A stretch of 64,000 bases of DNA from Eledone cirrhosa (Eukaryota), in the NCBI GenBank assembly GCA_964016885.1, contig OZ024742.1, positions 370,326,001 to 370,390,000 of the forward strand, given 5' to 3'. Positions within the stretch are counted from its first letter, which is position 1. The number at the start of each line of letters is the position of its first letter. Shown in pieces: positions 9,340 to 64,000 of the stretch. A model generated the notes under the pieces. That model saw only the letters and a program-made list of their open reading frames with translations, did no database searches and was not told the origin of the DNA. Made by a program: the position numbers and the translations under genes.

Positions 9340-9373
<34 letters not shown>

Positions 9374-11670: not shown

Positions 11671-11693
11671 TGAACCGGTGGTGTTTTTTGTCA

Positions 11694-23640: not shown

Positions 23641-23659
23641 CATTTACTTGCTCTTATCT

Positions 23660-26856: not shown

Positions 26857-26858
<2 letters not shown>
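25434..26858 (+). mobile_element. 5'-truncated RTE-clade LINE: end of RT, PHD-like finger, C-terminus, 3'UTR and (GAT)n tail, inserted in (TA)n
   Basis: ORF with GLKINLAKTKV, FRYLG, MLHGSETW, RRLRWYGHVMR and GRPRKTW (RTE hallmarks), stop at 26363. 3'UTR ends GACGTTAAAC(GAT)5. TA runs on both sides. Confidence 0.92.
26530..26760 (+). repeat. 112-bp tandem duplication within the RTE 3'UTR
   Basis: CAGTCC recurs at 26531, 26643 and 26755, with two near-identical units between. Confidence 0.9.
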
Positions 26859-26950
<92 letters not shown>

Positions 26951-27099
26951 CACACACACATGATATAATTTATTTCAAGGTTTATTTAATGTGTCATGAA
27001 AAATATATATTTATAAAAAGTGTGTCACTAATGTGGAGAATTTGGAAAGCTGTGACATAGGAAAGATTCTTCTTCCTGCTCTTGCTCAACGGGGTCATC

Positions 27100-27500
27100 C
27101 TAAGCCAGCAATCCCAGAAGCATCATCATATGTAGGGCGACCAGGTTCACCAGCGCCCTCCATTGCTGGTTGTCCCATGCCATCTCTGCATCCTCCAAGG
27201 TGAACTCAAGCCTCCAGAGATCTTCCCTGATGACATCCAGCCATCTGGTGCAGGCCCTCTTCCAGCCTGTGTCGAACAAGAGTAAGGTCCTGGTAGGATA
27301 ATCTGGTGGAAAGCGGAGGACATGTCCGTACCAGCGCATACGGCAGGAAGCTATGAAGTGGGAAGCTGTACACATCAGCCCACCTCATAGCTAAAGGACA
27401 GATAAGTAACCCAAATGGAGAGACTGGTGTGAGATACTGGTCAATTCCATTCGGAACAAATAATATGATAGTGGAATATTGCAGTGTGTAGGGCTGTAAG
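27100..27500 (-). mobile_element. Decayed 3' end of an RTE-like LINE (different family)
   Basis: RMRWYGHVLRFPPDYPTR...TRWLDVIREDL...WRALV followed by an (ATG)n-like tail. Confidence 0.75.
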
Positions 27501-27507
27501 TAGACAC

Positions 27508-27965
27508 AGTATCATCTTCGTTTTTACATCCGTTTTTCCAAGTTTGCATGAGTCAGACGGGTCCTTCTAAGTATGGCATCTATCCCCTCATTACATTCCT
27601 TCGTCATCTCTGCAAGTATCATTGATTTGAGGTCAGCTCTCACAACCTCTGCCCAGGTGTTTCTTGGTTTACCTCTATGGCTACTTCTTTCCACTGGCAT
27701 TTCCTGGCACTTCTTCACCCATTGGTCATTATCCATGTACATCACATGTCCAAACCAACTCAGTCCTCTCTCTTGCACACCACCTTGAATTGCTCTTAAA
27801 CCCAGCTTCTCCTTCAAATCCTCCAAGCTCAGCCTTTCCCTCACACATTGGATAAAACATGGTTGCTTCATTTCTCTCAAGTCCTTGCAATCACCTACCA
27901 TATTTCACTATCATACTGTCGTCCTTGTGTATATATAGAGAAACCTTTTGTGGTCAACAGTGGAA
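27508..27965 (-). mobile_element. Decayed 3' end of an RTE LINE related to 25434-26858
   Basis: LKEKLGLRAI..QERGLSWFGHVMYMDNDQWVKKC..RGKPRNTWAEVVRADL. Ends CATGCAAACTTGGAAAAACGGATGTAAAAACGAAGATGAT, like the tail of the + strand copy. Confidence 0.8.
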
Positions 27966-27984
27966 GTAACTCGACCTGTTTTTG

Positions 27985-28050
27985 CTTGGTTTCTACAGCG
28001 GGATGCCCTTCTTAATGCCAACCACATTTACAGTGAGGTCTAGGTGCCTT
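27985..28050 (-). mobile_element. RTE 3'UTR motif fragment forming the left boundary of the satellite
   Basis: GGTTTCTACAGCGGGATGCCCTTCTTAATGCCAACCACATTTACAGTG is the reverse complement of 26699-26747 (CACTGTAAATGTGGTTGGTGTTAGGAAGGGCATCCAGCTGTAGAAAACC) with few changes. Confidence 0.85.
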
Positions 28051-31000
28051 TTGCCATACCACCAAAAACGACCACTTTACAGTGTGGACTGAGTGCCTTT
28101 TATCATGGCACCAAGACGAACACTTTACACTGTGGCCTGAGTGCCTTTTGCCATGGCAACAAAACGACCACTTTACAGTGTGGTTGGGTATCGTTTGGCA
28201 TGGCACCAAAACGACCACTTTACAGTGTGGTCAGGGTGCTCTTTGTCATGGCACCAAAACGACCACTTTACAGTGTAGACTGGGTGCTCTTTGTCATGGC
28301 ACCAAAACAACCACTTTATAGTATGGACTGAGTGCCTTTTGTCATGGCACGAAAACGACGACTTTACAGTGTGGGCTGGGTGCCTTTTGTCATGGCACCA
28401 AAACGGCCACTTTATAGTGTGGATTGGGTGCTCTCTGACATGGCACAAAACGACCACTTTATAGTGTGTACTGGGTGCTCTCTGTCATGGCACAAAACGA
28501 CCACTTTACAGTGTGTACTGGGTGCTCTATGTCATGGCACCAAAACGACCAATGTATAGTGTGGTCTAGGTGCCTTTTGTCTTGGCACCAAAAACGATAA
28601 ATTTATAGTGTGGAGTGGGTGCCTTTTCAAATGGCATCAAAACGACCACTTTACAGTAGGGACTGGGTGCTTTTCATCGTAGGACCAAAACGATCACTTT
28701 ACAGTGTGGACTGAGTGCCTTTTGTCATGGCACCAAGACGACCAATTTACAGTGTGGACTGGGTGCCTTTAGTCATGGCACCAAAACGACCACTTTACAG
28801 TGTGGAATGAGTGCCTTTTGTCATGGCACCAGGACGACTACTTTATACTGTGGACTGGATACCTTCATCATGGCACCAAAACGACCATTTTAGTGTGGAC
28901 TGAGTGCCTTTTGTCATGGCACCAAACGAACACTTTCCAGTGTGGTCTGGGTGCCTTTCATCATGGCACCAAAACGACCACTTTACAGTGTGACAGGGTG
29001 CCTTTTATCATGGCCCCAAAACGACCACCCTACAGTGTGGGCTGAGTGCCTTTCATCATGGCACCAAAACGACCACTTTACAGTGTGACAGGGTGCCTTT
29101 TATCATGGCCCCAAAACGACCACCCTACAGTGTGGGCTGAGTGCCTTTCATCATGGCACCAAAACGACCACTTTATAGTGTGGTCTGGGTGCCTTTTGTC
29201 ATGGCACCAAAACGACCACTTTCCAGTTAGGACTGGGTGCCTTTTATCATGGCCCCAAAACGACCACCCTACAGTGTGGACAGGGTGCTTTTTGTCATGG
29301 CACTAAAATCGAACACTTTATAGTGTGGGCTGGGTGCCTTTCATCATGGCACCAAAACATTAACTTTACAGTGTGGGCTGGGTGCCTTTTGTCATTGCAC
29401 CAAAACGACCACTTTATAGTGTGGACTGAGTACCTTTAGTCATGGCACCAAAATGACCACTTTACAGTGTGGGCTGAGTGCCTTTTGTTATAGCACCAAA
29501 ACGACCAATTTCCAGTGTGGATTGAGTGCCTTTTGTCATTGCACCAAAGCGACCACTTTACAGTGTGTACTGGGTGCTCTATGTCATGGCATCAAACCGA
29601 CCACTTTCCAGTGTGAACTGAGTGCCTTTTGTCATTGCACCAAAACGACCACTTTACAGTGTGTACTGGGTGCTCTATGTCATGGCACCAAAACGACCAC
29701 TTTATAGTGTGGACTTGGTGCCTTTTGTCATGGCACCAAAACGAACACTTTACAGTGGGGACTGGGTGCCTTTTATCGTGGCACCAAAACGATCACTTTA
29801 GTGTGGTCTGGGTGCATTTTGTCATGGCAGTAAAACGATCACTTTACTCTGTGGACTGTGTGCCTTTGGTCATGGCACCAAAACGACCACTTTACAGTGT
29901 GGACTGGGTGCTCTATGTCATGGCACCAAAACGACCACTTTATAATGTGGACTGGGTGCCTTTTGTCTGCGCATCAAAAACGACAACTTTATAGTGTGGG
30001 CTGGGTGCCTTTTGTCAGCGCTCCAAAACGACCACTTTACAGTGTGGACTGGGTGCCTTTTGTCAGCGCACCAAAACGACCACTTTACAGTGTGGAATGG
30101 GTGCTCTATGTCATGGCACCAAAACGAACACTTTATAGTGTGGACTAGGTGCCTTTCATCATGGCACCAAAACAATCACTTTACAGTGTGGGTTGGGTGC
30201 CCTTTGTCATGGCATCAAAACGACCACTTTACAGTGTGGGTTGGGTGCCCTTTGTCATGGCACCAAAACGACCACTTTACAGTGGGGACTGGGTGCTTTT
30301 CATCGTGGCACCAAAACGATCACTTTAGTGTGGACTAGGTGCATTTTGTCATGGCAGCAAACGATCACTTTACTCTGTGGACTGTGTGCCTTTGGTCATG
30401 GCACCAAAACGACCACTTTACAGTGTGGGCTGTGTGCCTTTTGTCATGGCACCAAAACGACCATTTTATAGTGTGTGCTAAGTGCCTATTGCCATGGCAG
30501 CAAAACGACCAGTTTACAGTGTGGACTAGGTGCCTTTTGGTATGGCACCAAAACGACCACTTTACAGTGTGGACTGGGTGCTGTTTGTCCACGCTCCAAA
30601 ACGACCAATTTATAGTGTGTACTAGTTGTTTTTGCCATGGCAGCAAAACGTCCACTTTACAGTGTGGTCTGGGTGCTGTTTGTCATGGCAACAAAACGAC
30701 CACTTTATAGTGTGGACTGATTGCCTTTTGTCATGGTACCAAAACAACCACTTTACAGTGTGGATTGAGTACCTTTTGTCATGGCACCAAAAACGAACAC
30801 TTTATAGTGTGGACTGTGTGCTTTTCATCATGGCACCAAAAGGATCACTTTACAGTGTGGTCTGGGTGCCCTTCATCATGGCACCAAAACTACCATTTTA
30901 TTGTGGACTGAGTGCCTGTGTCATGGCACCAAAAACAACCACTTTATAGTGTGGGCTGGGTGCCTTTTGTCATGGCACCAAAACAACCACTTTACAGTGT

Positions 31001-34000
31001 GGTCTGGGTGCCTTTTATCATAACCCCAAAACGACCACCCTACAGTGTGGACAGGGTGCCTTTTGTCATGGCACCAAAACGACCACTTTACAGTGTGGAC
31101 TGAGTGCCTTTTATTATTGCCCCTAAACGACCACTTTCCACAGTGAACTCGGTGCCGCTTGCCATTGCACCAAATCGACAACATTATAGTGTGGATTGGG
31201 TGCTCTCTGTCATGGCACAAAACGACCAGTTTATAGTGTGTACTGGGTGCTCTCTGTCATGGCACCAAAACGACCACTTTCCAGTGTGTACTGAATGTCT
31301 TTTGTCATTACACCAAAACGACCACTTTACAGTGTGGACTGAGTGCCTTTTATTATTGCCCCTAAACGACCACTTTCCACAGTGAACTCGGTGCCGCTTG
31401 CCATTGCACCAAATCGACAACATTATAGTGTGGATTGGGTGCTCTCTGTCATGGCACAAAACGACCAGTTTATAGTGTGTACTGGGTGCTCTATGTCATG
31501 GCACCAAAACGACCAATGTATAGTGTGGATTGGGTGCCTTTTGTCTTGGCACCAAAAACGATAACTTTGAAATGGCATCAAAACGACCACTTTACAGTAG
31601 GCACTGGGTGCTTTTCATCGTGGGACCACAACGATCACTTTAGTGTGGACTGGGTGCCTTTTGTCATGGCACCAAAACGACCACTTTATAGTGTGGACTG
31701 AGTGCCTTTTGTCATGGCACCAAAACGACCACTTTATAGTGTGGTCTGAGTACCTTTTGTCATGGCACCAAACGACCACTTTATTCTGTGATCTATGTGT
31801 TTTTTGTTATGGCACCAAAACGACCATTTTATAGTGTGGACTGGGTGCTCTTTGTCATGGCACCAAAACGACCACTTTACAATGTTCACTGGGTGCCTTT
31901 TGTCAACGCTCCAAAACGACCAATTTATAGTGTGTACTAGGTATTTTTGCCATGGCAGCAAAATGACCACTTTACAGTGTGGTCTGGGTGCCTTTTGTCA
32001 TGGCATCAAAACGACCACTTTACAGTGTGGACTGGGTGCCTTTTATCATGGCACCAAAACGACCACTTTATAGTGTGAACAAAGTGCCTTTTGCCATGCT
32101 ACCAAAATGTCACTTTATAGTGTGGACTGAGTGCCGTTTGGCATTGCCCCAAAACGAACACTTTATAGTGTGGACTGATTGCCTTTTGTGATGGTACCAA
32201 AACAACCACTTTACAGTGTGGACTGAGTACCTTTTGTCATGGCACCAAAAACGAACACTTTATAGTGTGGACTGTGTGCTTTTCATCATGGCACCAAAAG
32301 GATCACTTTACTGTGTGGCCTGGGTGCCTTTCATCAAGGCACCAAAACTACCATTTTAGTGTGGACTGAGTGCCGGTGTCATGTCACCAAAAACGACCAG
32401 TTTATAGTGTGGACTGGGTACCTTTTGTCATGGCACCAAAACAAACACTTTACGGTGTGGTCTGGGTGCCTTTTATCATAACCCCAACACGACCACCCTA
32501 GAGTGTGGTCAGGGTGCCTTTTGTCATGGCACCAAAAACGATAACATTATAGTGTCGACTGGGTGCCTTTCATCATGCCACCAAAACGTTCACTTTACAG
32601 TGTGGACTGAGTGCCTTTTATCATTGACCCTAAACGACCACTTTCCACTGTGAACTCGGTGCCTTTTGTCATTGCACCAAAACGAACACTTTATAGTGTG
32701 GATTGTGTGCCGTTTGTCATGGCACCAAAACGACGACTTTATAGTGTGGACTGAGTGCCTTTTATCATTGCGCCTAAACGACCATTTTACAGTGTGGATT
32801 GGGTATCGTTTGGCATGGCACCAAAACGACCACTTTACAGTGTGGACTGAGTACTTTTTGCCATGGCAGCAAAACGATCAGTTTACAGTGTGGACTGTGT
32901 GTCTTTTGGTATGGCACCGAATCGAACACATTACAGTGTGGACTGGGTCATCTTTGTCATGACACCAAAATGATCACTTTACAATGTGAGATAGGTGCCT
33001 TTTGTCAGCGCTCCGAAACGACCAATTTATATTGTGTAATAGGTGCCTTTTGCCATGGCAGCAAAACGACCACTTTATAGTGTGGACTGAGTGCCTTTTG
33101 TCATGGCACCAAAACGACCACTTTGCAGTGTGGTCTGGGTGCCTTTCATTGCAACAAAACAACCTCTTTACAGTGAGGACTGGGGGCCTTTTGTCATTGC
33201 ACCAAAACGACTACTTTATAGTGTGGACTAAGCACCTTTTGTCATGGCACCAAAATGACCACTTTCCAGTGTGGACTGAGTGCTTTTATCATGGCACCAA
33301 CACGACCACTTTCCAGTGTGTACTGAATGCCTTTTGTCATTGCTCCAAATCGACCAATTTACAGTGTGTACTGGGTGCTCTATGTCATGGCACCAAAACG
33401 ACCACTTTATAGTGTGGACAGGGTGCCTTTCATTGTGGCACCAAAACGATCACTTTAGTGTGGACTGCGTGCCTTTTATCATGGCACCAAAACGACCACT
33501 TTATAGTGTGGACTGAGTACCTTTTGTTATGGCACCAAAACGACCACTTTATAGTGTGTGCTAAGTGCTTTTGCCATGGCAGCAAAACGACCAGTTTACA
33601 GTGTGGACTGGGTATCTTTTGGTATGGCACCAAAACGACCACTTTACAGTGTGTACTGGGTGCTCTTTGTCATGGCACCAAAACGATCACTTTACAATGT
33701 GGACTGGGTGCCTTTTGTCAGCGCTGCAAAACGACCACTTTATAGTGTGTACAAAGTGCCTTTTGCCATGGCAGCAAAATGACCCCTTTATAGTGTGGAC
33801 TGATTGCCTTTTGTCATGGTACCAAATCAACCACTTTACAGTGTGGACTGGGTGCTTTTCATCATGGCACCAAAACGATTACTTTACAGTGTGGTCTGGG
33901 TGCCATTCATCATGGCAACGAAACAAACCCTTTACAGTGTGGACTGGTACCTTTTGTCATGGCACCAAAACGTCCATTTTCCAGAGTGGACTGGGTGCTT

Positions 34001-42369: not shown

Positions 42370-45300
42370 TGGGTGCCTTTTGTCATGGCACCAAAACGAC
42401 CACTTTACATTATGGACTGGGTGCCTTTTGTCATGGCACCAAAACGACCACTTTACAGTATGGACAGAGTGCCTTTTGTCATGGCACCAAATCGACCACT
42501 TTACAGTATGGACTGGGTGCCTTTTGTCATGGCACCAAATCGACCACTTTACAGTATGGAAAGAGTGCCTTTTGTCAAGGCACCAAATCGACCACTTTAC
42601 AGTATGAACTGGGTGCCTTTTGTCATGGCACCAAAACGACCACTTTACAGCATGGACTGGGTGCCTTTTGTCATGGCACCAAATCGACCACTTTACAGTA
42701 TGGACTGGGTGCCTTTTGTCATGGCACCAAAACGACCACTTTACAGCATGGACTGGGTGCCTTTTGTCATGGCACCAAATCGACCACTTTACAGTATGGA
42801 CTGAGTGCCTTTTGTCATGGCACCAAATCGACCACTTTATAGTGTGGACTGTGTGACTTTGTCATGGCACCAAAACGACCACTTTACAGTATGGACTGGG
42901 TGCCTTTTGTCATGGCACCAAAACGACCACTTTACAATATGGACTGGGTGCCTTTTGTCATGGCACCAAATCGACCACTTTACAGTATGGACTGGGTGCT
43001 TTTGTCATGGCACCAAATCGACCACTTTACAGTATGGACTGGGTGCCTTTTGTCATGGCACCAAAATGACCACTTTACAGCATGGACTGGGTGCCTTTTG
43101 TCATGGCACCAAAACGACCACTTTACAGTGTGGACTGGGTGCCTTTGTCATGGCACCAAAACTCCACTTTATATTGTGGACTGGGTGATTTTGTCATGGC
43201 ACCAACACGACCACTTTACAGTGTGGTCTGTGTGCCTTTTGTCATGTCACCAAAACGACCACTTTACAGTGTGGACTGGGTGCCTTTTGTCATGGCACTA
43301 AAACGACCACTTTACAGCGTGGACTGGGTGCCTTTTGTCATGGCACCAAATCGACCACTTTACAGTGTGGACTGAGTGCCTTTTGTCATGGCACCAAATC
43401 GACCACTTTACAGTGTGGACTGGGTGCCTTTTGTCATGGCACCAAAACGACCACTTTACAGTGTGGTCTGGGTGCCTTTTGTCATGGCACCAACACGACC
43501 ACTTTACAGTGTGGTCTGTGTGCCTTTTGTCATGTCACCAAAACGACCACTTTACAGTGTGGAATGGGTGCCTTTTGTCATGGCACTAAAACGACCACTT
43601 TACAGCGTGGGCTGGGTGCCTTTTGTCATGGCACCAAATCGACCACTTTACAGTATGGACTGTTTGCCTTTTCTCATGGCACCAAAACGACCACTTTAAA
43701 GTGTGGACTGAGTGCCTTTTGTCATGGCACCAAATCGACCACTTTACAGTGTGGACTGTTTGCCTTTTCTCATGCACCAAAACGACCACTTTAAAGTGTG
43801 GACTGGGTGCCTTTTGTCATGGCACCAAATCGACCACTTTACAGTATGGACTGTTTGCTTTTCTCATGGCACCAAAACGACCACTTTAAAGTGTGGACTG
43901 AGTGCCTTTTGTCATGGCACCAAATCGACCACTTTACAGTGTGGACTGGGTACCGTTTGTCATGGCACCAAATCGACCACTTTACAGTGTGGACTACGTG
44001 CCTTTTGTCATGGCACCAAAACGACCATTTTACAGTGTGGACTGGGTGCCTTTTGTCATGGCACCAAATCGACCACTTTACAGTATGGACTGTTTGCCTT
44101 TTCTCATGGCACCAAAACGACCACTTTAAAGTGTGGACTGAGTGCCTTTTGTCATGGCACCAAAACGACCACTTTACATTATGGACTGGGTGCCTTTTGT
44201 CATGGCACCAAAACGACCACTTTACAGTATGGACAGAGTGCCTTTTGTCATGGCACCAAATCGACCACTTTACAGTATGGACTGGGTGCCTTTTGTCATG
44301 GCACCAAATCGACCACTTTACAGTATGGAAAGAGTGCCTTTTGTCAAGGCACCAAATCGACCACTTTACAGTATGAACTGGGTGCCTTTTGTCATGGCAC
44401 CAAAACGACCACTTTACAGCATGGACTGGGTGCCTTTTGTCATGGCACCAAATCGACCACTTTACAGTATGGACTGGGTGCCTTTTGTCATGGCACCAAA
44501 ACGACCACTTTACAGCATGGACTGGGTGCCTTTTGTCATGGCACCAAATCGACCACTTTACAGTATGGACTGAGTGCCTTTTGTCATGGCACCAAATCGA
44601 CCACTTTATAGTGTGGACTGTGTGACTTTGTCATGGCACCAAAACGACCACTTTACAGTATGGACTGGGTGCCTTTTGTCATGGCACCAAAACGACCACT
44701 TTACAATATGGACTGGGTGCCTTTTGTCATGGCACCAAATCGACCACTTTACAGTATGGACTGGGTGCTTTTGTCATGGCACCAAATCGACCACTTTACA
44801 GTATGGACTGGGTGCCTTTTGTCATGGCACCAAAATGACCACTTTACAGCATGGACTGGGTGCCTTTTGTCATGGCACCAAAACGACCACTTTACAGTGT
44901 GGACTGGGTGCCTTTGTCATGGCACCAAAACTCCACTTTATATTGTGGACTGGGTGATTTTGTCATGGCACCAACACGACCACTTTACAGTGTGGTCTGT
45001 GTGCCTTTTGTCATGTCACCAAAACGACCACTTTACAGTGTGGACTGGGTGCCTTTTGTCATGGCACTAAAACGACCACTTTACAGCGTGGACTGGGTGC
45101 CTTTTGTCATGGCACCAAATCGACCACTTTACAGTGTGGACTGAGTGCCTTTTGTCATGGCACCAAATCGACCACTTTACAGTGTGGACTGGGTGCCTTT
45201 TGTCATGGCACCAAAACGACCACTTTACAGTGTGGTCTGGGTGCCTTTTGTCATGGCACCAACACGACCACTTTACAGTGTGGTCTGTGTGCCTTTTGTC

Positions 45301-45930
45301 ATGTCACCAAAACGACCACTTTACAGTGTGGAATGGGTGCCTTTTGTCATGGCACTAAAACGACCACTTTACAGCGTGGGCTGGGTGCCTTTTGTCATGG
45401 CACCAAATCGACCACTTTACAGTATGGACTGTTTGCCTTTTCTCATGGCACCAAAACGACCACTTTAAAGTGTGGATTGAGTGCCTTTTGTCATGGCACC
45501 AAATCGACCACTTTACAGTGTGGACTGTTTGCCTTTTCTCATGCACCAAAACGACCACTTTAAAGTGTGGACTGGGTGCCTTTTGTCATGGCACCAAATC
45601 GACCACTTTACAGTATGGACTGTTTGCTTTTCTCATGGCACCAAAACGACCACTTTAAAGTGTGGACTGAGTGCCTTTTGTCATGGCACCAAATCGACCA
45701 CTTTACAGTGTGGACTGGGTACCGTTTGTCATGGCACCAAATCGACCACTTTACAGTGTGGACTACGTGCCTTTTGTCATGGCACCAAAACGACCATTTT
45801 ACAGTGTGGACTGGGTGCCTTTTGTCATGGCACCAAATCGACCACTTTACAGTATGGACTGTTTGTCTTTTCTCATGGCACCAAAACGACCACTTTAAAG
45901 TGTGGACTGAGTGCCTTTTGTCATGGCACC
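42370..45930. repeat. 1769-bp (37-monomer) higher-order tandem duplication, two copies
   Basis: Identical or near-identical ORFs offset by 1769: 42805/44574, 42864/44633, 43082/44851, 43335/45104, 43712/45481. Confidence 0.9.
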
Positions 45931-48213: not shown

Positions 48214-51200
48214 TCATGGCACCAAAACGACCACTTTACAGTGTGGACTGGGTGTCTTTTGTCATGGCACCAAAACGACCACGTTACAGTGTGGACTGGG
48301 TGCCTTTTGTCATGGCACCAAAACGACCACTTTACAGTGTGGACTGGGTGCCTTTTGTCATGGCACCAAAACGACCACTTTACAGTGTGGAGTGGGTGCC
48401 TTTTGTCATGGCACCAAAACGACCACTTTACAGTGTGGACTTAGTGCCTTTTGTCATGACACCAAAACGACCACTTTACAGTGTGGACTGGATGCCTTTT
48501 GTCATGGCACCAAAACGACCAATTTACAGTGTGGACTGGGTGCCTTTTGACATGACACCAAAACGACCACTTTACAGTGTGGACTGGGTACATTTTGACA
48601 TGACACCAAAACGACCACTTTACAGTGTGGACTGGGTGCCTTTTGACATGACACCAAAACGACCACTTTACAGTGTGGACTGGGTGCCTTTTGTCATGAC
48701 ACCAAAACGACCACTTTACACTATGGACTGTGTGCCTTTTGTCATGACACCAAAACGACCACTTTACAGTGTGGACTGGTTGCCTTTTGTCATGGCACCA
48801 AAACGACCACTTTACAGTATGGACTGGGTGCCTTTTGTCATGACACCAAAACGAACACATTACAGTGTGGACTGGGTGCCTTTTGTCATGGCACCAAAAC
48901 GACCACTTTACAGTGTGGACTGGGTGCCTTTTGTCATGGCACCAAAACGACCACTTTACAGTGTGGACTGGGTGCCTTTTGTCATGGCACCAAAACGAAC
49001 ACTTTATAGTGTGGACTGCGTGCCTTTTGTCATGGCACCAAAACGACTACTTTACAGTGTGGACTGGGTGCCTTTTGTCATGGCACCAAAACGACCACTT
49101 TACAGTGTCGACTGGGTGTCTTTTGTCATGGCACCAAAACGACCACTTTACAGTGTGGACTGGGTGCCTTTTGTCATGGCACCAAAACGACCACTTTACA
49201 GTATGGACTGGGTGCCTTTTGTCATGACACCAAAACGACCACTTTACAGTGTGGACTGGGTGCCTTTTGTCATGGCACCAAAACGACTACTTTACAGTGT
49301 GGTCTGTGTGCCTTTTGTCATGACACCAAAACGACTACTTTACAGTGTGGACTGGGTGTCTTTTGTCATGGCACCAAAACGACTTCTTTACAGTGTGGTC
49401 TGTGTGCCTTTTGTCATGGCACCAAAATGACTACTTTACAGTGTGGACTGGGTGCCTTTTGTCATGGCACCAAAACGACCACTTTACAGTGTGGACTGGG
49501 TGCCTTTTGTCATGGCACCAAAACGACTACTTTACAGTGTGGTCTGTGTGCCTTTTGTCATGACACCAAAACGACTACTTTACAGTGTGGACTGGGTGTC
49601 TTTTGTCATGGCACCAAAACGACTTCTTTACAGTGTGGTCTGTGTGCCTTTTGTCATGGCACCAAAATGACTACTTTACAGTGTGGACTGGGTGCCTTTT
49701 GTCATGGCACCAAAACGACCACTTTACAGTGTGGACTGGGTGCCTTTTGTCATGGCACCAAAACGACTACTTTACAGTGTGGTCTGGGTGCCTTTTGTCA
49801 TGGCACCAAAACGACACTTTACAGTGTGGACTGGGTACCGTTTGTCATGGCACCAAAACGACCACTTTACAGTGTGGACTGGGTACCGTTTGTCATGACA
49901 CCAAAACGACCACTTTACAGTGTGGACTGGGTACCGTTTGTCATGGCACCAAAACGATCACTTTACAGTGTGGACTGGGTGCATTTTGTCATGGCACCAA
50001 AACGACCACTTTACAGTGTGGACTGGGTACCGTTTGTCATGGCACCAAAACGACCACTTTACAGTGTGGACTGGGTGCCTTTTGTCATGGCACCAAATCG
50101 ACCACTTTAGAGTGTGGACTGCGTGCCTTTTGTCATGGCACCAAAACGACCACTTTACAGTGTGGACTGGGTGCCTTTTGTCACGGCACCAAAACGAACA
50201 CTTTACAGTGTGGACTGGGTGCCTTTTGTCATGGCACCAAAACGACCACTTTACAGTGTGGACTCGGTGCCTTTTGTCACGGCACCAAAACAAACACTTT
50301 ACAGTGTGGACTGGGTGCCTTTTGTCATGGCACCAAAACGACCACTTTACAGTGTGGACTGGGTGCCTTTTGTCACGGCACCAAAACGAACACTTTACAG
50401 TGTGGACTGGGTGCCTTTTGTCATGGCACCAAAACGACCAGTTTACAGTGTGGACTGGGTGCCTTTTGTCACGGCACCAAAACGAACACTTTACAGTGTG
50501 GATTGGTGCCTTTTGTCATGGCACCAAAACGACCACTTTACAGTGTGGACTGGGTGCCTTTTGTCACGGCACCAAAACGAACACTTTACAGTATGGACTG
50601 GGTGCCTTTTGTCATGGCACCAAAACGACCACTTTACAGTGTGGACTGGGTGCCTTTTGTCACGGCACCAAAACGAACACTTTACAGTGTGAACTGGGTG
50701 CCTTTTGTCATGGCACCAAAACGACCAATTTATAGTGTGGACTGTGTGCCTTTGTCATGGCACCAAAGCGACCACTTTATAGTGTGGGCTGGGTGCTTTT
50801 GTCATGGCACCAAATCCACCACTTTACAATGTGGACTGGGTGCCTTTTGTCATCGCTCCAAAACGACCACACTATAGCGTGTACTAAGTCCCTTTTGCAA
50901 TGGCACCAAAACGACGACTTTACAGTGTGGACTGGGTGCCTTTGTCATGGCACCAAAACGACAACTTTATAGTGTGGTCTGGGTGATTTTGTCATTGTAC
51001 CAAAACTACCACTTTATAGTGTGTACTAAGTGCCTTTTGTCATGGCACCAAATCGACCACTTTACAGTGTGGTCTGAGTGCTTTTTATCATGGCAACAAA
51101 ACGACCACTTTACAGTTTGGGCTGAGTGCCTTTTGTCATGGCACCAAAACGACCACTTTACAGTGTGGACTGAGTGCTTTTTATCATGGCAACAAAACGA

Positions 51201-54200
51201 CCACTTTACAGTGTGGTCTGAGGGCTTTTTATCATGGCAACAAAACGACCACTTTACAGTTTGGGCTGAGTGCCTTTTGTCATGGCACCAAAACGACCAC
51301 TTTCCAGTGTGGGCTGCGTGCCTTTTGTCATGGCACCAAATCGACCACTTTACAGTGTGGTCTGGGTGCCTTTTGTCATGGCGCAAATCGACCACTTTAC
51401 AGTGTGGACTGGGTGCCTTTTGTCATGGCACCAGAACGACTACTTTACAGTGTGGACTGGGTGCCTTTTGTCATGGCACCAAAACGACCACTTTACAGTG
51501 TGGACTAGGTGCCTTTTGTCATGGCACCAAAACGACCACTTTACAGTGTGGACTGGGTGCCTTTTGTCATGACACCAAAACGACCACTTTACAGTGTGGA
51601 CTGGGTGCCTTTTGTCATGACACCAAAACGACCACTTTACAGTGTGGACTGGGTGCCTTTTGTCATGGCACCAAAACGACCACTTTACAGTGTGGACTGG
51701 GTGCCTTTTGTCATGGCACCAAAACGACCACTTTACAGTGTGGACTGGGTGCCTTTTGTCATGGCACCAGAACGACCACTTCACAGTGTGGACTGGGTGC
51801 CTTTTGTCATGGCACCAAAACGTCCACTTTACAGTGTGGACTGGGTGCCTTTTGTCATGACACCAAAACGACCACTTTACAGTGTGGACTGGGTGCCTTT
51901 TGTCATGACACCAAAACGGCCACTTTACAGTGTGGACTGGGTGCCTTTTGTCATGGCACCAAAACGACCACGTTACAGTGTGGGCTGGGTGCCTTTTGTC
52001 ATGGCACCAAAACGACCACTTTACAGTGTGGACTGGGTGCCTTTTGTCATGGCACCAAAACGACCACTTTACAGTGTGGACTGGGTGCCTTTTGTCATGA
52101 CACCAAAACAAACACTTTACAGTGTGGACTGGGTGCCTTTTGTCATGGCACCAAAACGACCACTTTACAGTGTGGAGTGGGTGCCTTTTGTCATGGCACC
52201 AAAACGACCACTTAACAGTGTGGACTTAGTGCCTTTTGTCGTGAAACCAAAACGACCACTTTACAGTGTGGACTGGGTGCCTTTTGTCATGGCACCAAAA
52301 CGACCACTTTACAGTGTGGACTGGGTGCCTTTTGACATGACACCAAATCGACCACTTTACAGTGTGGACTGGGTGCCTTTTGACATGACACCAAAACGAC
52401 CACTTTACAGTGTGGACTGGGTGCTTTTTGACATGACACCAAAACGACCACTTTACAGTGTGGACTGTGTGCCTTTTGTCATGACACCAAAACGACCACT
52501 TTACACTATGGACTGTGTGCCTTTTGTCATGACACCAAAACGACCACTTTACACTATGGACTGTGTGCCTTTTGTCATGACACCAAAACGACCACTTTAC
52601 ACTATGGACTGGGTGCCTTTTGTCATGGCACCAAAACGACCACTTTACAGTGTGGACTGGGTGCCTTTTGTCATGGCACCAAAACGACCACTTTACAGTA
52701 TGGACTGGGTGCCTTTTGTCATGACACCAAAACGAACACATTACAGTGTGGACTGGGTGCCTTTTGTCATGGCACCAAAACGACCACTTTACAGTGTGGA
52801 CTGGGTGCCTTTTGTCATGGCACCAAAACGACCACTTTACAGTGTGGACTGGGTGCCTTTTGTCATGGCACCAAAACGAACACTTTATAGTGTGGACTGC
52901 GTGCCTTTTGTCATGGCACCAAAACGACTACTTTACAGTGTGGACTGGGTGCCTTTTGTCATGGCACCAAAACGACCACTTTACAGTGTGGACTGGGTGC
53001 CTTTTGTCATGGCACCAAAACGACCACTTTACAGTGTGGACTGGGTGCCTTTTGACATGACACCAAAACGACCACTTTACAGTGTGGACTGGGTGCCTTT
53101 TGACATGACACCAAAACGACCACTTTACAGTGTGGACTGGGTACCTTTTGACATGACACCAAAACGACCACTTTACAGTGTGGACTGGGTGCCTTTTGTC
53201 ATGACACCAAAACGACCACTTTACACTATGGACTGTGTGCCTTTTGTCATGACACCAAAACGACCACTTTACACTATGGACTGTGTGCCTTTTGTCATGA
53301 CACCAAAACGACCACTTTACACTATGGACTGGGTGCCTTTTGTCATGGCACCAAAACGACCACTTTACAGTGTGGACTGGGTGCCTTTTGTCATGGCACC
53401 AAATCGACCACTTTACAGTATGGACTGGGTGCCTTTTGTCATGACACCAAAACGAACACATTACAGTGTGGACAGGGTGCCTTTTGTCATGGCACCAAAA
53501 CGACCACTTTACAGTGTGGACTGGGTGCCTTTTGTCATGGCACCAAAACGACCACTTTACAGTGTGGACTGGGTGCCTTTTGTCATGGCACCAAAACGAA
53601 CACTTTATAGTGTGGACTGCGTGCCTTTTGTCATGGCACCAAAACGACTACATTACAGTGTGGACTGGGTGCCTTTTGTCATGGCACCAAAACGACCACT
53701 TTACAGTGTGGACTGGGTGCCTTTTGTCAATGTCACCTAAACGACCACTTTACAGTGTGGACTGGGTGCCTTTTGTCATGGCACCAAAACGGCTACTTTA
53801 CAGTGTGGTCTGTGTGCCTTTTGTCATGACACCAAAACGACTACTTTACAGTGTGGACTGGGTGTCTTTTGTCATGGCACCAAAACGACTACTTTACAGT
53901 GTGGTCTGTGTGCCTTTTGTCATGGCACCAAAACGACTACTTTACAGTGTGGACTGGGTGCCTTTTGTCATGGCACCAAAACGACCAATTTACAGTGTGG
54001 ACTGGGTGCCTTTTGTCATGGCACCAAAACGACCACTTTACAGTGTGGTCTGGGTGCCTTTTGTCATGGCACCAAAACGACACTTTACAGTGTGGACTGG
54101 GTACCGTTTGTCATGGCACCAAAACGACCACTTTACAGTGTGGACTGGGTACCGTTTGTCATGACACCAAAACGACCACTTTACAGTGTGGACTGGGTAC

Positions 54201-57200
54201 CGTTTGTCATGGCACCAAAACGACCACTTTACAGTGTGGACTGGGTGCCTTTTGTCATGGCACCAAAACGACCACTTTACAGTATGGACTGGGTGCCTTT
54301 TGTCATGACACCAAAACGAACACATTACAGTGTGGACTGGGTGCCTTTTGTCATGGCACCAAAACGACCACTTTACAGTGTGGACTGGGTGCCTTTTGTC
54401 ATGGCACCAAAACGACCACTTTACAGTGTGGACTGGGTGCCTTTTGTCATGGCACCAAAACGAACACTTTATAGTGTGGACTGCGTGCCTTTTGTCATGG
54501 CACCAAAACGACTACTTTACAGTGTGGACTGGGTGCCTTTTGTCATGGCACCAAAACGACCACTTTACAGTGTGGACTGGATGCCTTTTGTCAATGTCAC
54601 CTAAACGACCACTTTACAGTGTGGACTGGGTGCCTTTTGTCATGGCACCAAAACGACTACTTTACAGTGTGGTCTGTGTGCCTTTTGTCATGACACCAAA
54701 ACGACTACTTTACAGTGTGGACTGGGTGTCTTTTGTCATGGCACCAAAACGACTACTTTACAGTGTGGTCTGTGTGCCTTTTGTCATGGCACCAAAACGA
54801 CTACTTTACAGTGTGGACTGGGTGCCTTTTGTCATGGCACCAAAACGACCACTTTACAGTGTGGACTGGGTGCCTTTTGTCATGGCACCAAAACGACCTC
54901 TTTACAGTGTGGTCTGGGTGCCTTTTGTCATGGCACCAAAACGACACTTTACAGTGTGGACTGGGTACCGTTTGTCATGGCACCAAAACGACCACTTTAC
55001 AGTGTGGACTGGGTACCGTTTGTCATGACACCAAAACGACCACTTTACAGTGTGGACTGGGTACCGTTTGTCATGGCACCAAAACGACCACTTTACAGTG
55101 TGGACTGGGTGCCTTTTGTCATGGCACCAAAACGACCACTTTACAGTGTGGACTGGGTACCGTTTGTCATGGCACCAAAACGACCACTTTACAGTGTGGA
55201 CTGGGTGTCTTTTGTCATGGCACCAAAACGACTACTTTACAGTGTGGACTGGGTGCCTTTTGTCATGGCACCAAAACGACCACTTTACAGTGTGGACTGG
55301 GTGCCTTTTGTCATGGCACCAAAACGACCACTTTACAGTGTGGTCTGGGTGCCTTTTGTCATGGCACCAAAACGACACTTTACAGTGTGGACTGGGTACC
55401 GTTTGTCATGGCACCAAAACGACCACTTTACAGTGTGGACTGGGTACCGTTTGTCATGACACCAAAACGACCACTTTACAGTGTGGACTGGGTACCGTTT
55501 GTCATGGCACCAAAACGACCACTTTACAGTGTGGACTGGGTGCCTTTTGTCATGACACCGAAACGAACACATTACAGTGTGGACTGGGTGCCTTTTGTCA
55601 TGGCACCAAAACGACCACTTTACAGTGTGGACTGGGTGCCTTTTGTCATGGCACCAAAACGACCACTTTACAGTGTGGACTGGGTGCCTTTTGTCATGGC
55701 ACCAAAACGAACACTTTATAGTGTGGACTGCGTGCCTTTTGTCATGGCACCAAAACGACTACTTTACAGTGTGGACTGGGTGCCTTTTGTCATGGCACCA
55801 AAACGACCACTTTACAGTGTGGACTGGGTGCCTTTTGTCAATGTCACCTAAACGACCACTTTACAGTGTGGACTGGGTGCCTTTTGTCATGGCACCAAAA
55901 CGACTACTTTACAGTGTGGTCTGTGTGCCTTTTGTCATGACACCAAAACGACTACTTTACAGTGTGGACTGGGTGTCTTTTGTCATGGCACCAAAACGAC
56001 TACTTTACAGTGTGGTCTGTGTGCCTTTTGTCATGGCACCAAAACGACTACTTTACAGTGTGGACTGGGTGCCTTTTGTCATGGCACCAAAATGACCACT
56101 TTACAGTGTGGACTGGGTGCCTTTTGTCATGGCACCAAAACGACCACTTTACAGTGTGGTCTGGGTGCCTTTTGTCATGGCACCAAAACGACACTTTACA
56201 GTGTGGACTGGGTACCGTTTGTCATGGCACCAAAACGACCACTTTACAGTGTGGACTGGGTACCGTTTGTCATGACACCAAAACGACCACTTTACAGTGT
56301 GGACTGGGTACCGTTTGTCATGGCACCAAAACGACCACTTTACAGTGTGGACTGGGTGCCTTTTGTCATGGCACCAAAACGACCACTTTACAGTGTGGAC
56401 TGGGTACCGTTTGTCATGGCACCAATACGACCACTTTACAGTGTGGACTGGGTGCCTTTTGTCATGGCACCAAAACGACCTCTTTACAGTGTGGACTTAG
56501 TGCCTTTTGTCATGACACCAAAACGACCACTTTACAGTGTGGACTGGGTGCCTTTTGTCATGACACCAAAACGACCACTTTACAGTGTGGGCTGGGTGCC
56601 TTTTGTCAGGGCACAAAAACGACCACTTTACAGTGTGGACTGGGTGCCTTTTGACATGACACCAAAACGACCACTTTACAGTGTGGTCTGGGTGCCTTTT
56701 GTCATGGCACCAAAACGACCACTTTACACTATGGACTGTGTGCCTTTTGTCATGACACCAAAACGACCACTTTACACTATGGACTGGGTTCCTTTTGTCA
56801 TGGCACCAAAACGACCACTTTACAGTGTGGACTGGGTGCCTTTTGTCATGGCACCAAAACGACCACTTTACAGTATGGACTGGGTGCCTTTTGTCATGAC
56901 ACCAAAACGAACACATTACAGTGTGGACTGGGTGCCTTTTGTCATGGCACCAAAACGACTACTTTACAGTGTGGACTGGGTGCCTTTTGTCATGACACCA
57001 AAACGAACACATTACAGTGTGGACTGGGTGCCTTTTGTCATGGCACCAAAACGACCACTTTACAGTGTGGACTGGCTGCCTTTTGTCATGGCACCAAAAC
57101 GAACATATTACAGTGTGGACTGGGTGCCTTTTGTCATGGCACCAAAACGACCACTTTACAGTATGGACTGGGTGCCTTTTGTCATGACACCAAAACGAAC

Positions 57201-60200
57201 ACATTACAGTGTGGTCTGGGTGCCTTTTGTCATGGCACCAAAACGACCACTTTACAGTATGGACTGGGTGCCTTTTGTCATGACACCAAAACGAACACAT
57301 TACAGTGTGGACTGGGTGCCTTTTGTCATGGTACCAAAACGACCACTTTACAGTGTGGACTGGCTGCCTTTTGTCATGGCACCAAAACGACCACTTTACA
57401 GTATGGACTGGGCGCCTTTTGTCATGACACCAAAACGAACACTTTACAGTGTGGACTGGGTGCCTTTTGTCATGGCACCAAAACGACCACTTTACAGTGT
57501 GGACTGGGTGCCTTTTGTCATGGCACCAAAACGACTACTTTACAGTGTGGTCTGTGTGCCTTTTGTCATGACACCAAAACGACTAATTTACAGTGTGGTC
57601 TGTGTGCCTTTTGTCATGACACCAAAACGACTACTTTACAGTGTGGACTGGGTGCCTTTTGTCATGGCACCAAAACGACTACTTTACAGTGTGGACTGGG
57701 TGCCTTTTGTCATGGCACCAAAACGACCACTTTACAGTGTGGACTGGGTGCCTTTTGTCATGGCACCAAAACGACCACTTTACAGTGTGGACTGGGTGCC
57801 TTTTGTCATGGCACCAAAACGACCACTTTACAGTGTGGACTGGGTACCGTTTGTCATGGCACCAAAACGACCACTTTACAGTGTGGACTGGGTGCCTTTT
57901 GTCATGGCACCAAATCGACCACTTTACAGTGTGGACTGGGTGCCTTTTGTAATGGCACCAAAACGACCACTTTACAGTGTGGACTGGGTGCCTTTTGTCA
58001 TGGCACCAAAACGACCACTTTACAGTGTGGACTGGGTACCGTTTATCATGGCACCAAAACGACCACTTTACAGTGTGGACTGGGTACCGTTTGTCATGGC
58101 ACCAAAACGACCACTTTACAGTGTGGACTGGGTGCCTTTTGTCATGGCACCAAAACGACCACTTTACAGTGTGGACTGGGTGCCTTTTGTAATGGCACCA
58201 AAACGACTACTTTACAGTGTGGACTGGGTGCCTTTTGTCATGGCACCAAAACGACCACTTTACAGTATGGACTGGGTGCCTTTTGTCATGACACCAAAAC
58301 GAACACATTACAGTGTGGACTGGGTGCCTTTTGTCATGGCACCAAAACGACCACTTTACAGTGTGGACTGGGTGCCTTTTGTCATGGCACCAAAACGACT
58401 ACTTTACAGTGTGGACTGGGTGCCTTTTGTCATGGCACCAAAACGACCACTTTACAGTGTGGTCTGGGTGCCTTTTGTCATGGCACCAAAACGACCACTT
58501 TACAGTGTGGACTGGGTGCCTTTTGTCATGGCACCAAAACGACTACTTTACAGTGTGGACTGGGTGCCTTTTGTCATGGCACCAAAACGACCACTTTACA
58601 GTGTGGACTGGGTGCCTTTTGTCATGGCACCAAAACGACTACTTTAGAGTGTGGTCTGTGTGCCTTTTGTCATGACACCAAAACGACTACTTTACAGTGT
58701 GGACTGGGTGCCTTTTGTCATGGCACCAAAACGACTACTTTACAGTGTGGTCTGTGTGCATTTTGTCATGGCACCAAAACGACTACTTTACAGTGTGTAC
58801 TGGGTGCCTTTTATCATGGCACCAAAACGACCACTTTACAGTGTGGACTGGGTGTCTTTTGTCATGGCACCAAAACGACCACGTTACAGTGTGGACTGGG
58901 TGCCTTTTGTCATGGCACCAAAACGACCACTTTACAGTGTGGACTGGGTGCCTTTTGTCATGGCACCAAAACGACCACTTTACAGTGTGGAGTGGGTGCC
59001 TTTTGTCATGGCACCAAAACGACCACTTTACAGTGTGGACTTAGTGCCTTTTGTCATGACACCAAAACGACCACTTTACAGTGTGGACTGGATGCCTTTT
59101 GTCATGGCACCAAAACGACCAATTTACAGTGTGGACTGGGTGCCTTTTGACATGACACCAAAACGACCACTTTACAGTGTGGACTGGGTACATTTTGACA
59201 TGACACCAAAACGACCACTTTACAGTGTGGACTGGGTGCCTTTTGACATGACACCAAAACGACCACTTTACAGTGTGGACTGGGTGCCTTTTGTCATGAC
59301 ACCAAAACGACCACTTTACACTATGGACTGTGTGCCTTTTGTCATGACACCAAAACGACCACTTTACAGTGTGGACTGGTTGCCTTTTGTCATGGCACCA
59401 AAACGACCACTTTACAGTATGGACTGGGTGCCTTTTGTCATGACACCAAAACGAACACATTACAGTGTGGACTGGGTGCCTTTTGTCATGGCACCAAAAC
59501 GACCACTTTACAGTGTGGACTGGGTGCCTTTTGTCATGGCACCAAAACGACCACTTTACAGTGTGGACTGGGTGCCTTTTGTCATGGCACCAAAACGAAC
59601 ACTTTATAGTGTGGACTGCGTGCCTTTTGTCATGGCACCAAAACGACTACTTTACAGTGTGGACTGGGTGCCTTTTGTCATGGCACCAAAACGACCACTT
59701 TACAGTGTCGACTGGGTGTCTTTTGTCATGGCACCAAAACGACCACTTTACAGTGTGGACTGGGTGCCTTTTGTCATGGCACCAAAACGACCACTTTACA
59801 GTATGGACTGGGTGCCTTTTGTCATGACACCAAAACGACCACTTTACAGTGTGGACTGGGTGCCTTTTGTCATGGCACCAAAACGACTACTTTACAGTGT
59901 GGTCTGTGTGCCTTTTGTCATGACACCAAAACGACTACTTTACAGTGTGGACTGGGTGTCTTTTGTCATGGCACCAAAACGACTTCTTTACAGTGTGGTC
60001 TGTGTGCCTTTTGTCATGGCACCAAAATGACTACTTTACAGTGTGGACTGGGTGCCTTTTGTCATGGCACCAAAACGACCACTTTACAGTGTGGACTGGG
60101 TGCCTTTTGTCATGGCACCAAAACGACTACTTTACAGTGTGGTCTGTGTGCCTTTTGTCATGACACCAAAACGACTACTTTACAGTGTGGACTGGGTGTC

Positions 60201-63200
60201 TTTTGTCATGGCACCAAAACGACTTCTTTACAGTGTGGTCTGTGTGCCTTTTGTCATGGCACCAAAATGACTACTTTACAGTGTGGACTGGGTGCCTTTT
60301 GTCATGGCACCAAAACGACCACTTTACAGTGTGGACTGGGTGCCTTTTGTCATGGCACCAAAACGACTACTTTACAGTGTGGTCTGGGTGCCTTTTGTCA
60401 TGGCACCAAAACGACACTTTACAGTGTGGACTGGGTACCGTTTGTCATGGCACCAAAACGACCACTTTACAGTGTGGACTGGGTACCGTTTGTCATGACA
60501 CCAAAACGACCACTTTACAGTGTGGACTGGGTACCGTTTGTCATGGCACCAAAACGATCACTTTACAGTGTGGACTGGGTGCATTTTGTCATGGCACCAA
60601 AACGACCACTTTACAGTGTGGACTGGGTACCGTTTGTCATGGCACCAAAACGACCACTTTACAGTGTGGACTGGGTGCCTTTTGTCATGGCACCAAATCG
60701 ACCACTTTAGAGTGTGGACTGCGTGCCTTTTGTCATGGCACCAAAACGACCACTTTACAGTGTGGACTGGGTGCCTTTTGTCACGGCACCAAAACGAACA
60801 CTTTACAGTGTGGACTGGGTGCCTTTTGTCATGGCACCAAAACGACCACTTTACAGTGTGGACTCGGTGCCTTTTGTCACGGCACCAAAACAAACACTTT
60901 ACAGTGTGGACTGGGTGCCTTTTGTCATGGCACCAAAACGACCACTTTACAGTGTGGACTGGGTGCCTTTTGTCACGGCACCAAAACGAACACTTTACAG
61001 TGTGGACTGGGTGCCTTTTGTCATGGCACCAAAACGACCAGTTTACAGTGTGGACTGGGTGCCTTTTGTCACGGCACCAAAACGAACACTTTACAGTGTG
61101 GATTGGTGCCTTTTGTCATGGCACCAAAACGACCACTTTACAGTGTGGACTGGGTGCCTTTTGTCACGGCACCAAAACGAACACTTTACAGTATGGACTG
61201 GGTGCCTTTTGTCATGGCACCAAAACGACCACTTTACAGTGTGGACTGGGTGCCTTTTGTCACGGCACCAAAACGAACACTTTACAGTGTGAACTGGGTG
61301 CCTTTTGTCATGGCACCAAAACGACCAATTTATAGTGTGGACTGTGTGCCTTTGTCATGGCACCAAAGCGACCACTTTATAGTGTGGGCTGGGTGCTTTT
61401 GTCATGGCACCAAATCCACCACTTTACAATGTGGACTGGGTGCCTTTTGTCATCGCTCCAAAACGACCACACTATAGCGTGTACTAAGTCCCTTTTGCAA
61501 TGGCACCAAAACGACGACTTTACAGTGTGGACTGGGTGCCTTTGTCATGGCACCAAAACGACAACTTTATAGTGTGGTCTGGGTGATTTTGTCATTGTAC
61601 CAAAACTACCACTTTATAGTGTGTACTAAGTGCCTTTTGTCATGGCACCAAATCGACCACTTTACAGTGTGGTCTGAGTGCTTTTTATCATGGCAACAAA
61701 ACGACCACTTTACAGTTTGGGCTGAGTGCCTTTTGTCATGGCACCAAAACGACCACTTTACAGTGTGGACTGAGTGCTTTTTATCATGGCAACAAAACGA
61801 CCACTTTACAGTGTGGTCTGAGGGCTTTTTATCATGGCAACAAAACGACCACTTTACAGTTTGGGCTGAGTGCCTTTTGTCATGGCACCAAAACGACCAC
61901 TTTCCAGTGTGGGCTGCGTGCCTTTTGTCATGGCACCAAATCGACCACTTTACAGTGTGGTCTGGGTGCCTTTTGTCATGGCGCAAATCGACCACTTTAC
62001 AGTGTGGACTGGGTGCCTTTTGTCATGGCACCAGAACGACTACTTTACAGTGTGGACTGGGTGCCTTTTGTCATGGCACCAAAACGACCACTTTACAGTG
62101 TGGACTAGGTGCCTTTTGTCATGGCACCAAAACGACCACTTTACAGTGTGGACTGGGTGCCTTTTGTCATGACACCAAAACGACCACTTTACAGTGTGGA
62201 CTGGGTGCCTTTTGTCATGACACCAAAACGACCACTTTACAGTGTGGACTGGGTGCCTTTTGTCATGGCACCAAAACGACCACTTTACAGTGTGGACTGG
62301 GTGCCTTTTGTCATGGCACCAAAACGACCACTTTACAGTGTGGACTGGGTGCCTTTTGTCATGGCACCAGAACGACCACTTCACAGTGTGGACTGGGTGC
62401 CTTTTGTCATGGCACCAAAACGTCCACTTTACAGTGTGGACTGGGTGCCTTTTGTCATGACACCAAAACGACCACTTTACAGTGTGGACTGGGTGCCTTT
62501 TGTCATGACACCAAAACGGCCACTTTACAGTGTGGACTGGGTGCCTTTTGTCATGGCACCAAAACGACCACGTTACAGTGTGGGCTGGGTGCCTTTTGTC
62601 ATGGCACCAAAACGACCACTTTACAGTGTGGACTGGGTGCCTTTTGTCATGGCACCAAAACGACCACTTTACAGTGTGGACTGGGTGCCTTTTGTCATGA
62701 CACCAAAACAAACACTTTACAGTGTGGACTGGGTGCCTTTTGTCATGGCACCAAAACGACCACTTTACAGTGTGGAGTGGGTGCCTTTTGTCATGGCACC
62801 AAAACGACCACTTAACAGTGTGGACTTAGTGCCTTTTGTCGTGAAACCAAAACGACCACTTTACAGTGTGGACTGGGTGCCTTTTGTCATGGCACCAAAA
62901 CGACCACTTTACAGTGTGGACTGGGTGCCTTTTGACATGACACCAAATCGACCACTTTACAGTGTGGACTGGGTGCCTTTTGACATGACACCAAAACGAC
63001 CACTTTACAGTGTGGACTGGGTGCTTTTTGACATGACACCAAAACGACCACTTTACAGTGTGGACTGTGTGCCTTTTGTCATGACACCAAAACGACCACT
63101 TTACACTATGGACTGTGTGCCTTTTGTCATGACACCAAAACGACCACTTTACACTATGGACTGTGTGCCTTTTGTCATGACACCAAAACGACCACTTTAC

Positions 63201-64000
63201 ACTATGGACTGGGTGCCTTTTGTCATGGCACCAAAACGACCACTTTACAGTGTGGACTGGGTGCCTTTTGTCATGGCACCAAAACGACCACTTTACAGTA
63301 TGGACTGGGTGCCTTTTGTCATGACACCAAAACGAACACATTACAGTGTGGACTGGGTGCCTTTTGTCATGGCACCAAAACGACCACTTTACAGTGTGGA
63401 CTGGGTGCCTTTTGTCATGGCACCAAAACGACCACTTTACAGTGTGGACTGGGTGCCTTTTGTCATGGCACCAAAACGAACACTTTATAGTGTGGACTGC
63501 GTGCCTTTTGTCATGGCACCAAAACGACTACTTTACAGTGTGGACTGGGTGCCTTTTGTCATGGCACCAAAACGACCACTTTACAGTGTGGACTGGGTGC
63601 CTTTTGTCATGGCACCAAAACGACCACTTTACAGTGTGGACTGGGTGCCTTTTGACATGACACCAAAACGACCACTTTACAGTGTGGACTGGGTGCCTTT
63701 TGACATGACACCAAAACGACCACTTTACAGTGTGGACTGGGTACCTTTTGACATGACACCAAAACGACCACTTTACAGTGTGGACTGGGTGCCTTTTGTC
63801 ATGACACCAAAACGACCACTTTACACTATGGACTGTGTGCCTTTTGTCATGACACCAAAACGACCACTTTACACTATGGACTGTGTGCCTTTTGTCATGA
63901 CACCAAAACGACCACTTTACACTATGGACTGGGTGCCTTTTGTCATGGCACCAAAACGACCACTTTACAGTGTGGACTGGGTGCCTTTTGTCATGGCACC
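48214..64000. repeat. 10,600-bp (~221-monomer) higher-order repeat: ~48214-53400 recurs at ~58814-64000
   Basis: Identical ORFs offset by exactly 10600: 48441/59041, 48865/59465, 49585/60185, 50947/61547, 52226/62826, 52746/63346. Confidence 0.9.

Follow-up and report, generated by a model that had tools for sequence, protein, structure and literature searches.

A 48-bp satellite array in Eledone cirrhosa that probably grew from a repeat in the 3' UTR of an RTE-like LINE

The window is the whole stretch of 64,000 nucleotides of Eledone cirrhosa DNA that was analysed (G000:C3:370326001-370390000, in a 3.0-Gb assembly). We added 350 kb downstream, for a total of 414 kb, and extended coordinates carry the window numbering on. 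The window contains a 6.3-kb AT-type microsatellite (3242-9546), a 41-bp array of 12 copies (11165-11672) and a 60-bp array of 11.5 copies (11694-12385). Some 6 kb from the 48-bp array described below, on the minus strand of 21365-21781, lies what is likely the first coding exon of a gene for a FAM174-like membrane protein; its match to Pfam DUF1180 scores 24.1 bits, below the cut-off of 27.7. Giant arrays with unrelated units of 22, 36, 20, 39 and 38 bp, up to 112 kb in length, occupy window 15281-21159 and extended 111925-223825, 292913-296198, 305205-397925 and 401704-414000. Tandem arrays over 1 kb, including two 48-bp arrays, make up 81% of the 414 kb.

The first of the two 48-bp arrays, here called A1, is on the minus strand with respect to element sense. 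Within the window it covers 28021-64000 (750.9 copies, 87% matches according to TRF), and it continues for 18.7 kb beyond the window to extended 82660 (G000:C3:370408660). The whole array spans 54.6 kb and 1,139.5 copies (TRF) and contains no N; 8.5 Mb separate it from the end of the contig, which is 378.9 Mb long. These figures bear out the initial annotation, which had described a satellite of at least 36 kb and some 750 or more monomers. Monomers of A1 diverge from their own consensus by 5.3% on average. An older, heterogeneous zone beside the junction (28021 to approximately 40700, minus strand) has monomers that are 9-14% from the array consensus and 16-21% from each other, and a homogenised zone on the same strand (40700-64000 and onward to the far end) has monomers 3.5-6% from the consensus and 5-9% from each other. 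Nested block duplications of 1.8, 3.1 and 10.6 kb, 99.5-99.99% identical, are present within A1, and together with the divergence figures they reflect the homogenisation within arrays that is typical of satellites. One 1.77-kb block is duplicated at 42373-44096 and 44142-45865 (99.94% identical), and the 10.6-kb block at 48214-58854 has a head-to-tail partner at extended 58814-69454 (99.99% identical), neither with an assigned strand. The 10.6-kb duplication could be a very recent event or an assembly artefact.

Expansion driven by hairpins was considered and rejected. Short inverted repeats can be seen by eye in each unit, yet a three-unit stretch folded as DNA gave z = -1.57, with 13 of 200 shuffles equally good, and the array end with its tail folded as RNA gave z = +0.85. 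A search of Rfam over 23000-30000 returned two sub-threshold matches, both on AT repeats.

A1 runs into a 58-bp remnant of a 3' UTR tail of the RTE family (27979-28036, minus strand), which is in register with the last unit and whose first 16-18 bases are the start of a unit. The initial annotation had reported that the first monomer continues into the reverse complement of the 3' UTR of a LINE 1.3 kb away, and we recover this relationship. A 49-bp match on the opposite strand is 89.8% identical to 26696-26744 and 87.8% identical to 26584-26632, with a local score of 72, compared to a maximum of 27 in 1,000 dinucleotide shuffles; the junction string that the annotation quoted has its first 33 letters beginning at 27988. 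A single monomer, proposed to align with 26509-26550 of this UTR, does so at 26509-26554 (37 of 46 columns, score 45, shuffled maximum 30). Thus, in the shuffle control that had been named beforehand, monomer and junction each beat all 1,000 shuffles.

Both ends of A1 are altered. The tail lacks the rest of the 3' end found in dispersed copies, about 110 bp and a GAT-type microsatellite, and directly behind its cut-off end lies a second, decayed RTE-like fragment (27510-27978, minus strand), consisting of a coding-region end and a short 3' end, with 36-63% amino acid identity to the neighbouring ORF in three frames. The abrupt end of the tail could result from a deletion or from a template switch. 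At its far end, A1 adjoins a SINE in opposite orientation. No RTE flank is found there, and the upstream RTE sequence that the initial annotation had envisaged at this end does not survive. A candidate native 5' UTR boundary at the far end was dismissed, as its 10-base resemblance is explained by the adjoining SINE. No convincing target-site duplication surrounds A1, the longest shared word being 8 bp. Short-read contigs cover the tail and the units, including a run labelled as a second organism. No RNA run is among those listed as containing this sequence. Among the matches listed from four short-read contig sets over 27300-28300, no piece spans the junction, and the assembly is therefore the only source for both the junction and the 10.6-kb duplication.

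The LINE next to A1 (25433-26856, plus strand) is a 5'-truncated RTE-like element. Over 1.2-1.4 kb it matches its kin at 95-98% identity, and its subfamily is young. An open C-terminal part of its ORF (25433-26363) is followed by a 3' UTR (26364-26856) that carries diverged unit copies, a 112-bp duplication of unit plus tail (26530-26760) and a GAT microsatellite end. Among 11 relatives in the young subfamily, this 112-bp unit, which combines a 48-bp-like unit with the tail, is present in one to four or more copies. Two long relatives of the element each have a single open frame, of 1,075 and 1,069 amino acids respectively. The first of these frames matches Pfam Exo_endo_phos (69-286) and RVT_1 (599-799), both above cut-off, and a PHD-like cysteine domain also occurs in the long-relative ORF.

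RTE LINEs end in a short microsatellite rather than poly(A), and are frequently truncated at their 5' ends. The carrier LINE appears RTE-like in its anatomy, since it has, among frames of at least 600 amino acids, a single long ORF with an apurinic-type endonuclease followed by a reverse transcriptase, GAT-type 3' ends instead of poly(A), and variable 5' truncation in dispersed copies. Clade names are absent among the 120 reverse-transcriptase homologues listed of 201. The family is abundant: the 125 scored of 165,734 protein-search candidates are all 93-97% identical, apart from the query itself, and 20 spot windows of 10 kb, placed at round coordinates, contain seven tail matches in about five elements, from which a copy number of tens of thousands can be roughly extrapolated.

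The 48-bp unit is also found in dispersed elements. Of the dispersed copies, 29 were chosen for their similarity to the junction, and in all of these the same tail comes after 0-13 full units; 69 of 77 copies not chosen in this way have 0-2 units, as counted by a procedure that undercounts long, diverged arrays. Two parent types are possible for A1, whose own 5' part is lost. A LINE ORF C-terminus lies 226-741 bp upstream of the tail, in the same sense, in seven of the 29 copies closest to A1, and SINE-like elements with a tRNA-like head share the tail and carry their own variant of the unit. At least three types of element, the young LINE, the older LINE and the SINE, have diverged versions with one to three units. 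A copy on C8, complete at its 3' end, has 12 units of the A1 monomer variant (differences at 2 of 48 positions), and the A1 variant therefore predates A1. As in Ogre-type satellites, most copies have short unit arrays and few are expanded, in a continuous series that reaches thousands of units. The unit is a native variable-number repeat of this 3' UTR, which is hypervariable, with A1 as its extreme. The monomer did not arise from unique UTR sequence, given that the unit is already tandem in dispersed copies.

Walking and two array-internal searches detected 19 further arrays with 16 or more units, none of them chosen because of a tail. As reference for scoring how they end on the 3' side, we used the 3' end of one dispersed copy, minus the 18 bases shared with the unit. 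The same UTR flank, whose presence on other arrays was a suggested check of the initial proposal, ends 11 of the 19 (scores 41-130, shuffled maximum 27). The remaining eight have no scorable tail (scores 14-20); short tail-like scraps are visible by eye in three of these. In one array on C26 (13.36 Mb), tail sequence is on the 5' side instead. Shorter arrays in the family, with 5-14 units, end in the tail in eight of eight cases, and tail-ended arrays thus come in every size from 5 to 2,728 units. In the 11 tailed arrays, the tail marks the end of the repeat, which is not taken up again past the 3' end of the element. Array 5' ends are mostly truncated inside the array: one of 15 scored ends resembles the upstream UTR (score 40), and one has ORF sequence upstream.

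Arrays over 10 kb, A1 counted in, have lengths of 54.6, 53.7, 14.7, 131.1 and over 209 kb, which are appropriate to satellites. The combined length of those found so far is at least 463 kb, and four of the five are tailed. The 53.7-kb array (A2) is 141 kb from A1 on the opposite strand, and its tail is cut after about 60 bp. The A2 tail region (extended 277580-277800) is interrupted head-on by the 3' end of an opposite-strand family copy, behind which another long LINE begins. On C28, an array of 14.7 kb has a complete 3' end, and its pyrimidine-rich flank looks by eye like the upstream UTR in dispersed copies. A second C28 array, of 131,086 bp and 2,728 units with no N, is tailed by a 3' terminus with an internal deletion. 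The largest array, on C25 (G000:C25:18915001-19124329), exceeds 209 kb and 4,350 units, its 5' end not having been reached, and has no tail. At its end is a short, inverted stretch of the monomer. At a distance of 500 kb, the opposite strand bears a 1.5-kb array (G000:C25:19627132-19628597) whose consensus is identical, and the two are possibly one array that was split by an inversion. Consensus monomers of six arrays on four chromosomes differ at only 0-4 of 48 bases, and the A1 consensus differs from those of other long arrays at 5-8 of 48 positions. Divergence is flat, with no gradient, in A2, the C25 array and the 131-kb C28 array.

We consider it probable that A1 is the 48-bp 3' UTR unit carried by an RTE-like LINE that is abundant, and that it has likely grown in place, from a few units at the start to about 1,140. 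The seed would have been a single 5'-truncated copy, from an older subfamily, that was inserted here by target-primed reverse transcription, and would then have grown by host repeat expansion, through unequal exchange between sister chromatids or homologues, slippage and block duplication. At least two growth phases may have occurred, which would have left the junction side as the oldest part, and both ends would later have been trimmed or overlaid by other retroposons. The element would thus supply ready-made seeds and the host would inflate many short tandem units, with no function implied. Stepwise growth in place is indicated because the duplications are nested and the divergence profile has two zones. 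Amplification in place, as the initial annotation proposed, is the most likely course in view of these stepwise duplications and of the other arrays that end in the same UTR tail. Several observations run counter to this explanation. Eight of 19 arrays, including the largest, are tail-less, and the C26 array has its tail on the 5' side. A1 itself retains only the 58-bp tail, with no RTE flank at its far end and no convincing target-site duplication, and no ancestral empty or short allele was seen at its locus. Moreover, the divergence gradient is not general, 5' ends are rarely UTR-like, and the near-identity of the six consensus monomers would also fit exchange between arrays.

The same near-identity among arrays on different chromosomes, the eight arrays without a tail, and the lack of a clean retro-insertion boundary at either end of A1 could indicate that A1 arrived already long, copied with its tail from another array in the family by gene conversion, reinsertion of an excised circle or segmental duplication, such that only the homogenised zone grew here. 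This course is unlikely, as the A1 variant differs from all other long arrays examined at the 5-8 positions given above, and a search with the A1 interior found A1 itself in 149 of the 150 matches listed, and the 12-unit C8 copy in the remaining one. Even if A1 arrived already long, the unit would still have originated in the UTR. That origin would be reversed if the satellite were older than the LINE, with the unit captured into the UTR and the tails representing 5'-truncated cDNAs that annealed to arrays by homology. Homology-guided joining is feasible given the 16-18 bases shared by tail and unit, and the existence of arrays without tails is compatible with it. Nevertheless, we regard an older satellite as very unlikely: the diverged versions of one to three units, which are fixed in no fewer than three types of element, differ from each other more than the arrays do, and insertion into an existing array would usually leave repeat behind the element, which is absent in the 11 tailed arrays.

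The initial annotation placed the progenitor within the window, with a local inverted copy of the UTR of the RTE 1.3 kb away being amplified. Its derivation of the array from the 3' UTR of an RTE family stands, but the choice of the neighbouring copy as source does not. Proximity and significant similarity favour the neighbour, yet its last unit and tail are only 72-73% alike to the A1 junction, which ranks them 42nd and 45th of 71 unselected copies, among which the best reaches 84% (the best selected copy reaches 90%), and 92nd and 102nd in the full set of 149, in which close copies are enriched. The similarity ends after 46-49 bp of tail, where the neighbour's subfamily, with its own 112-bp repeat, diverges, and subfamily-diagnostic positions contradict descent from it. 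The neighbour is also 2-5% from its kin compared to 9-14% from the consensus for junction-side monomers, although these figures reflect different clocks and are only suggestive. Finally, 14 tail matches occur in the 414-kb stretch, and a cousin element near A1 is therefore expected by chance. Judging from these sequence comparisons, the neighbouring RTE is a cousin from a young subfamily and not the progenitor of A1, and we rate the opposite as extremely improbable.

Satellites derived from Ogre-type 3' UTRs, including PisTR-A of pea, were reportedly described by Macas et al. in 2009. According to the available text of PMC7004042, nine of 11 major satellites of Lathyrus originated from short tandem arrays in the 3' UTRs of Ogre elements (Ty3/gypsy, Tat) that were occasionally expanded, and the satellites of Lathyrus sativus and PisTR-A share with the Eledone array a variable 3' UTR repeat that is dispersed by the element and expanded in some places. 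They are also alike, to the extent that this text describes them, in having subfamilies with different units, which in the UTR considered here are 46, 48 and 112 bp. In contrast to Ogre, an LTR retrotransposon of the Tat/Ogre lineage, the carrier in this animal is a non-LTR, endonuclease-reverse transcriptase LINE of RTE-like type with a SINE partner, and array ends are readable in the assembly. A1 works like the Ogre case without being a member of that group.

Squamate SINE-derived satellites (sSats), as presented in the portion of PMC10702118 available to us, have up to about 1,000 units per locus at many independent loci. They resemble A1 in having a longer terminal unit that runs into the terminus of the element, an arrangement found in A1 and in 11 of 19 other arrays. 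The sSat monomer, on the same partial account (PMC10702118), is a portion of the SINE that was duplicated anew, whereas here a pre-existing LINE 3' UTR repeat is involved, in arrays of as many as 2,728 and over 4,350 units. Satellites derived from LINE 3' parts include the common cetacean satellite (L1), chicken HinfI (CR1) and Drosophila 18HT (HeT-A/TART), which exhibit the same homology to the 3' part of a non-LTR element but belong to other LINE clades; the word RTE does not appear in the accessible part of this review (PMC9659126). [quoted passage not shown] The carrier LINE is similar in ORF plan and 3' microsatellite, a comparison made by description only. In RTE-2_OV, by contrast, the microsatellite is most of the 3' UTR, and these excerpts mention no 48-bp unit (PMC9115989). 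No word beginning with "satellite" occurs in the main text, as available, of an octopus repeat annotation (PMC13282606). A description of this 48-bp satellite was not found in the open-access literature, a scope that leaves aside subscription journals, supplements, Repbase and Dfam.

The conversion of a retroelement tail into a satellite is an established route, and in Eledone it recurs at many loci of one genome. The concept is unchanged, and the value of this case is in its material, in which the same seed is represented from one unit to thousands, at identifiable loci and with junctions intact in the assembly. Such a series allows a test of a question raised in the available text of PMC7004042, namely whether expansion is favoured in some types of chromatin, or occurs anywhere with persistence at low recombination. 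The finding would gain in value if a genome-wide map made it possible to test, from the series of sizes, where it is that satellites grow. There is also a practical consequence, in that hundreds of kilobases of this satellite would enter a repeat annotation as pieces of LINE or SINE, distorting element counts and ages. We suggest, with somewhat more doubt than conviction, that one LINE family has provided 48-bp seeds, near-identical and in the tens of thousands, throughout a 3-Gb genome, of which giant locus-specific arrays make up perhaps a fifth; seeds grown to 15-200 kb or more keep the tail, and this could be an undescribed main route of genome growth in the lineage. If true, this genome would offer a natural experiment, dated and genome-wide, on the birth of satellites, both its sites and its mechanism.

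Giant arrays of unrelated units are common in this genome, which makes A1 less surprising. Four of the 20 spot windows consist wholly or almost wholly of tandem arrays, with units of 27/57, 87, 25 and 19 bp (on C1, C1, C2 and C5), which hints, in a small sample, that about a fifth of the genome is composed of giant minisatellite-type arrays. An interspersed-repeat origin was sought for the 22-, 36-, 38- and 39-bp arrays and for three of the four spot arrays, with no match in a small sample of DNA. A dispersed 61-bp tandem family, present at extended 92638-92824 and 398956-399752 and at loci on C27 and C28, is related to the 27/57-bp C1 array, and is likely another interspersed repeat that seeds arrays. 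Seven repeats of a 47-bp unit (G000:C3, extended 84002-84332) lie within the coding part of a decayed RTE-like copy, and here another portion of this type of element has seeded a second array.
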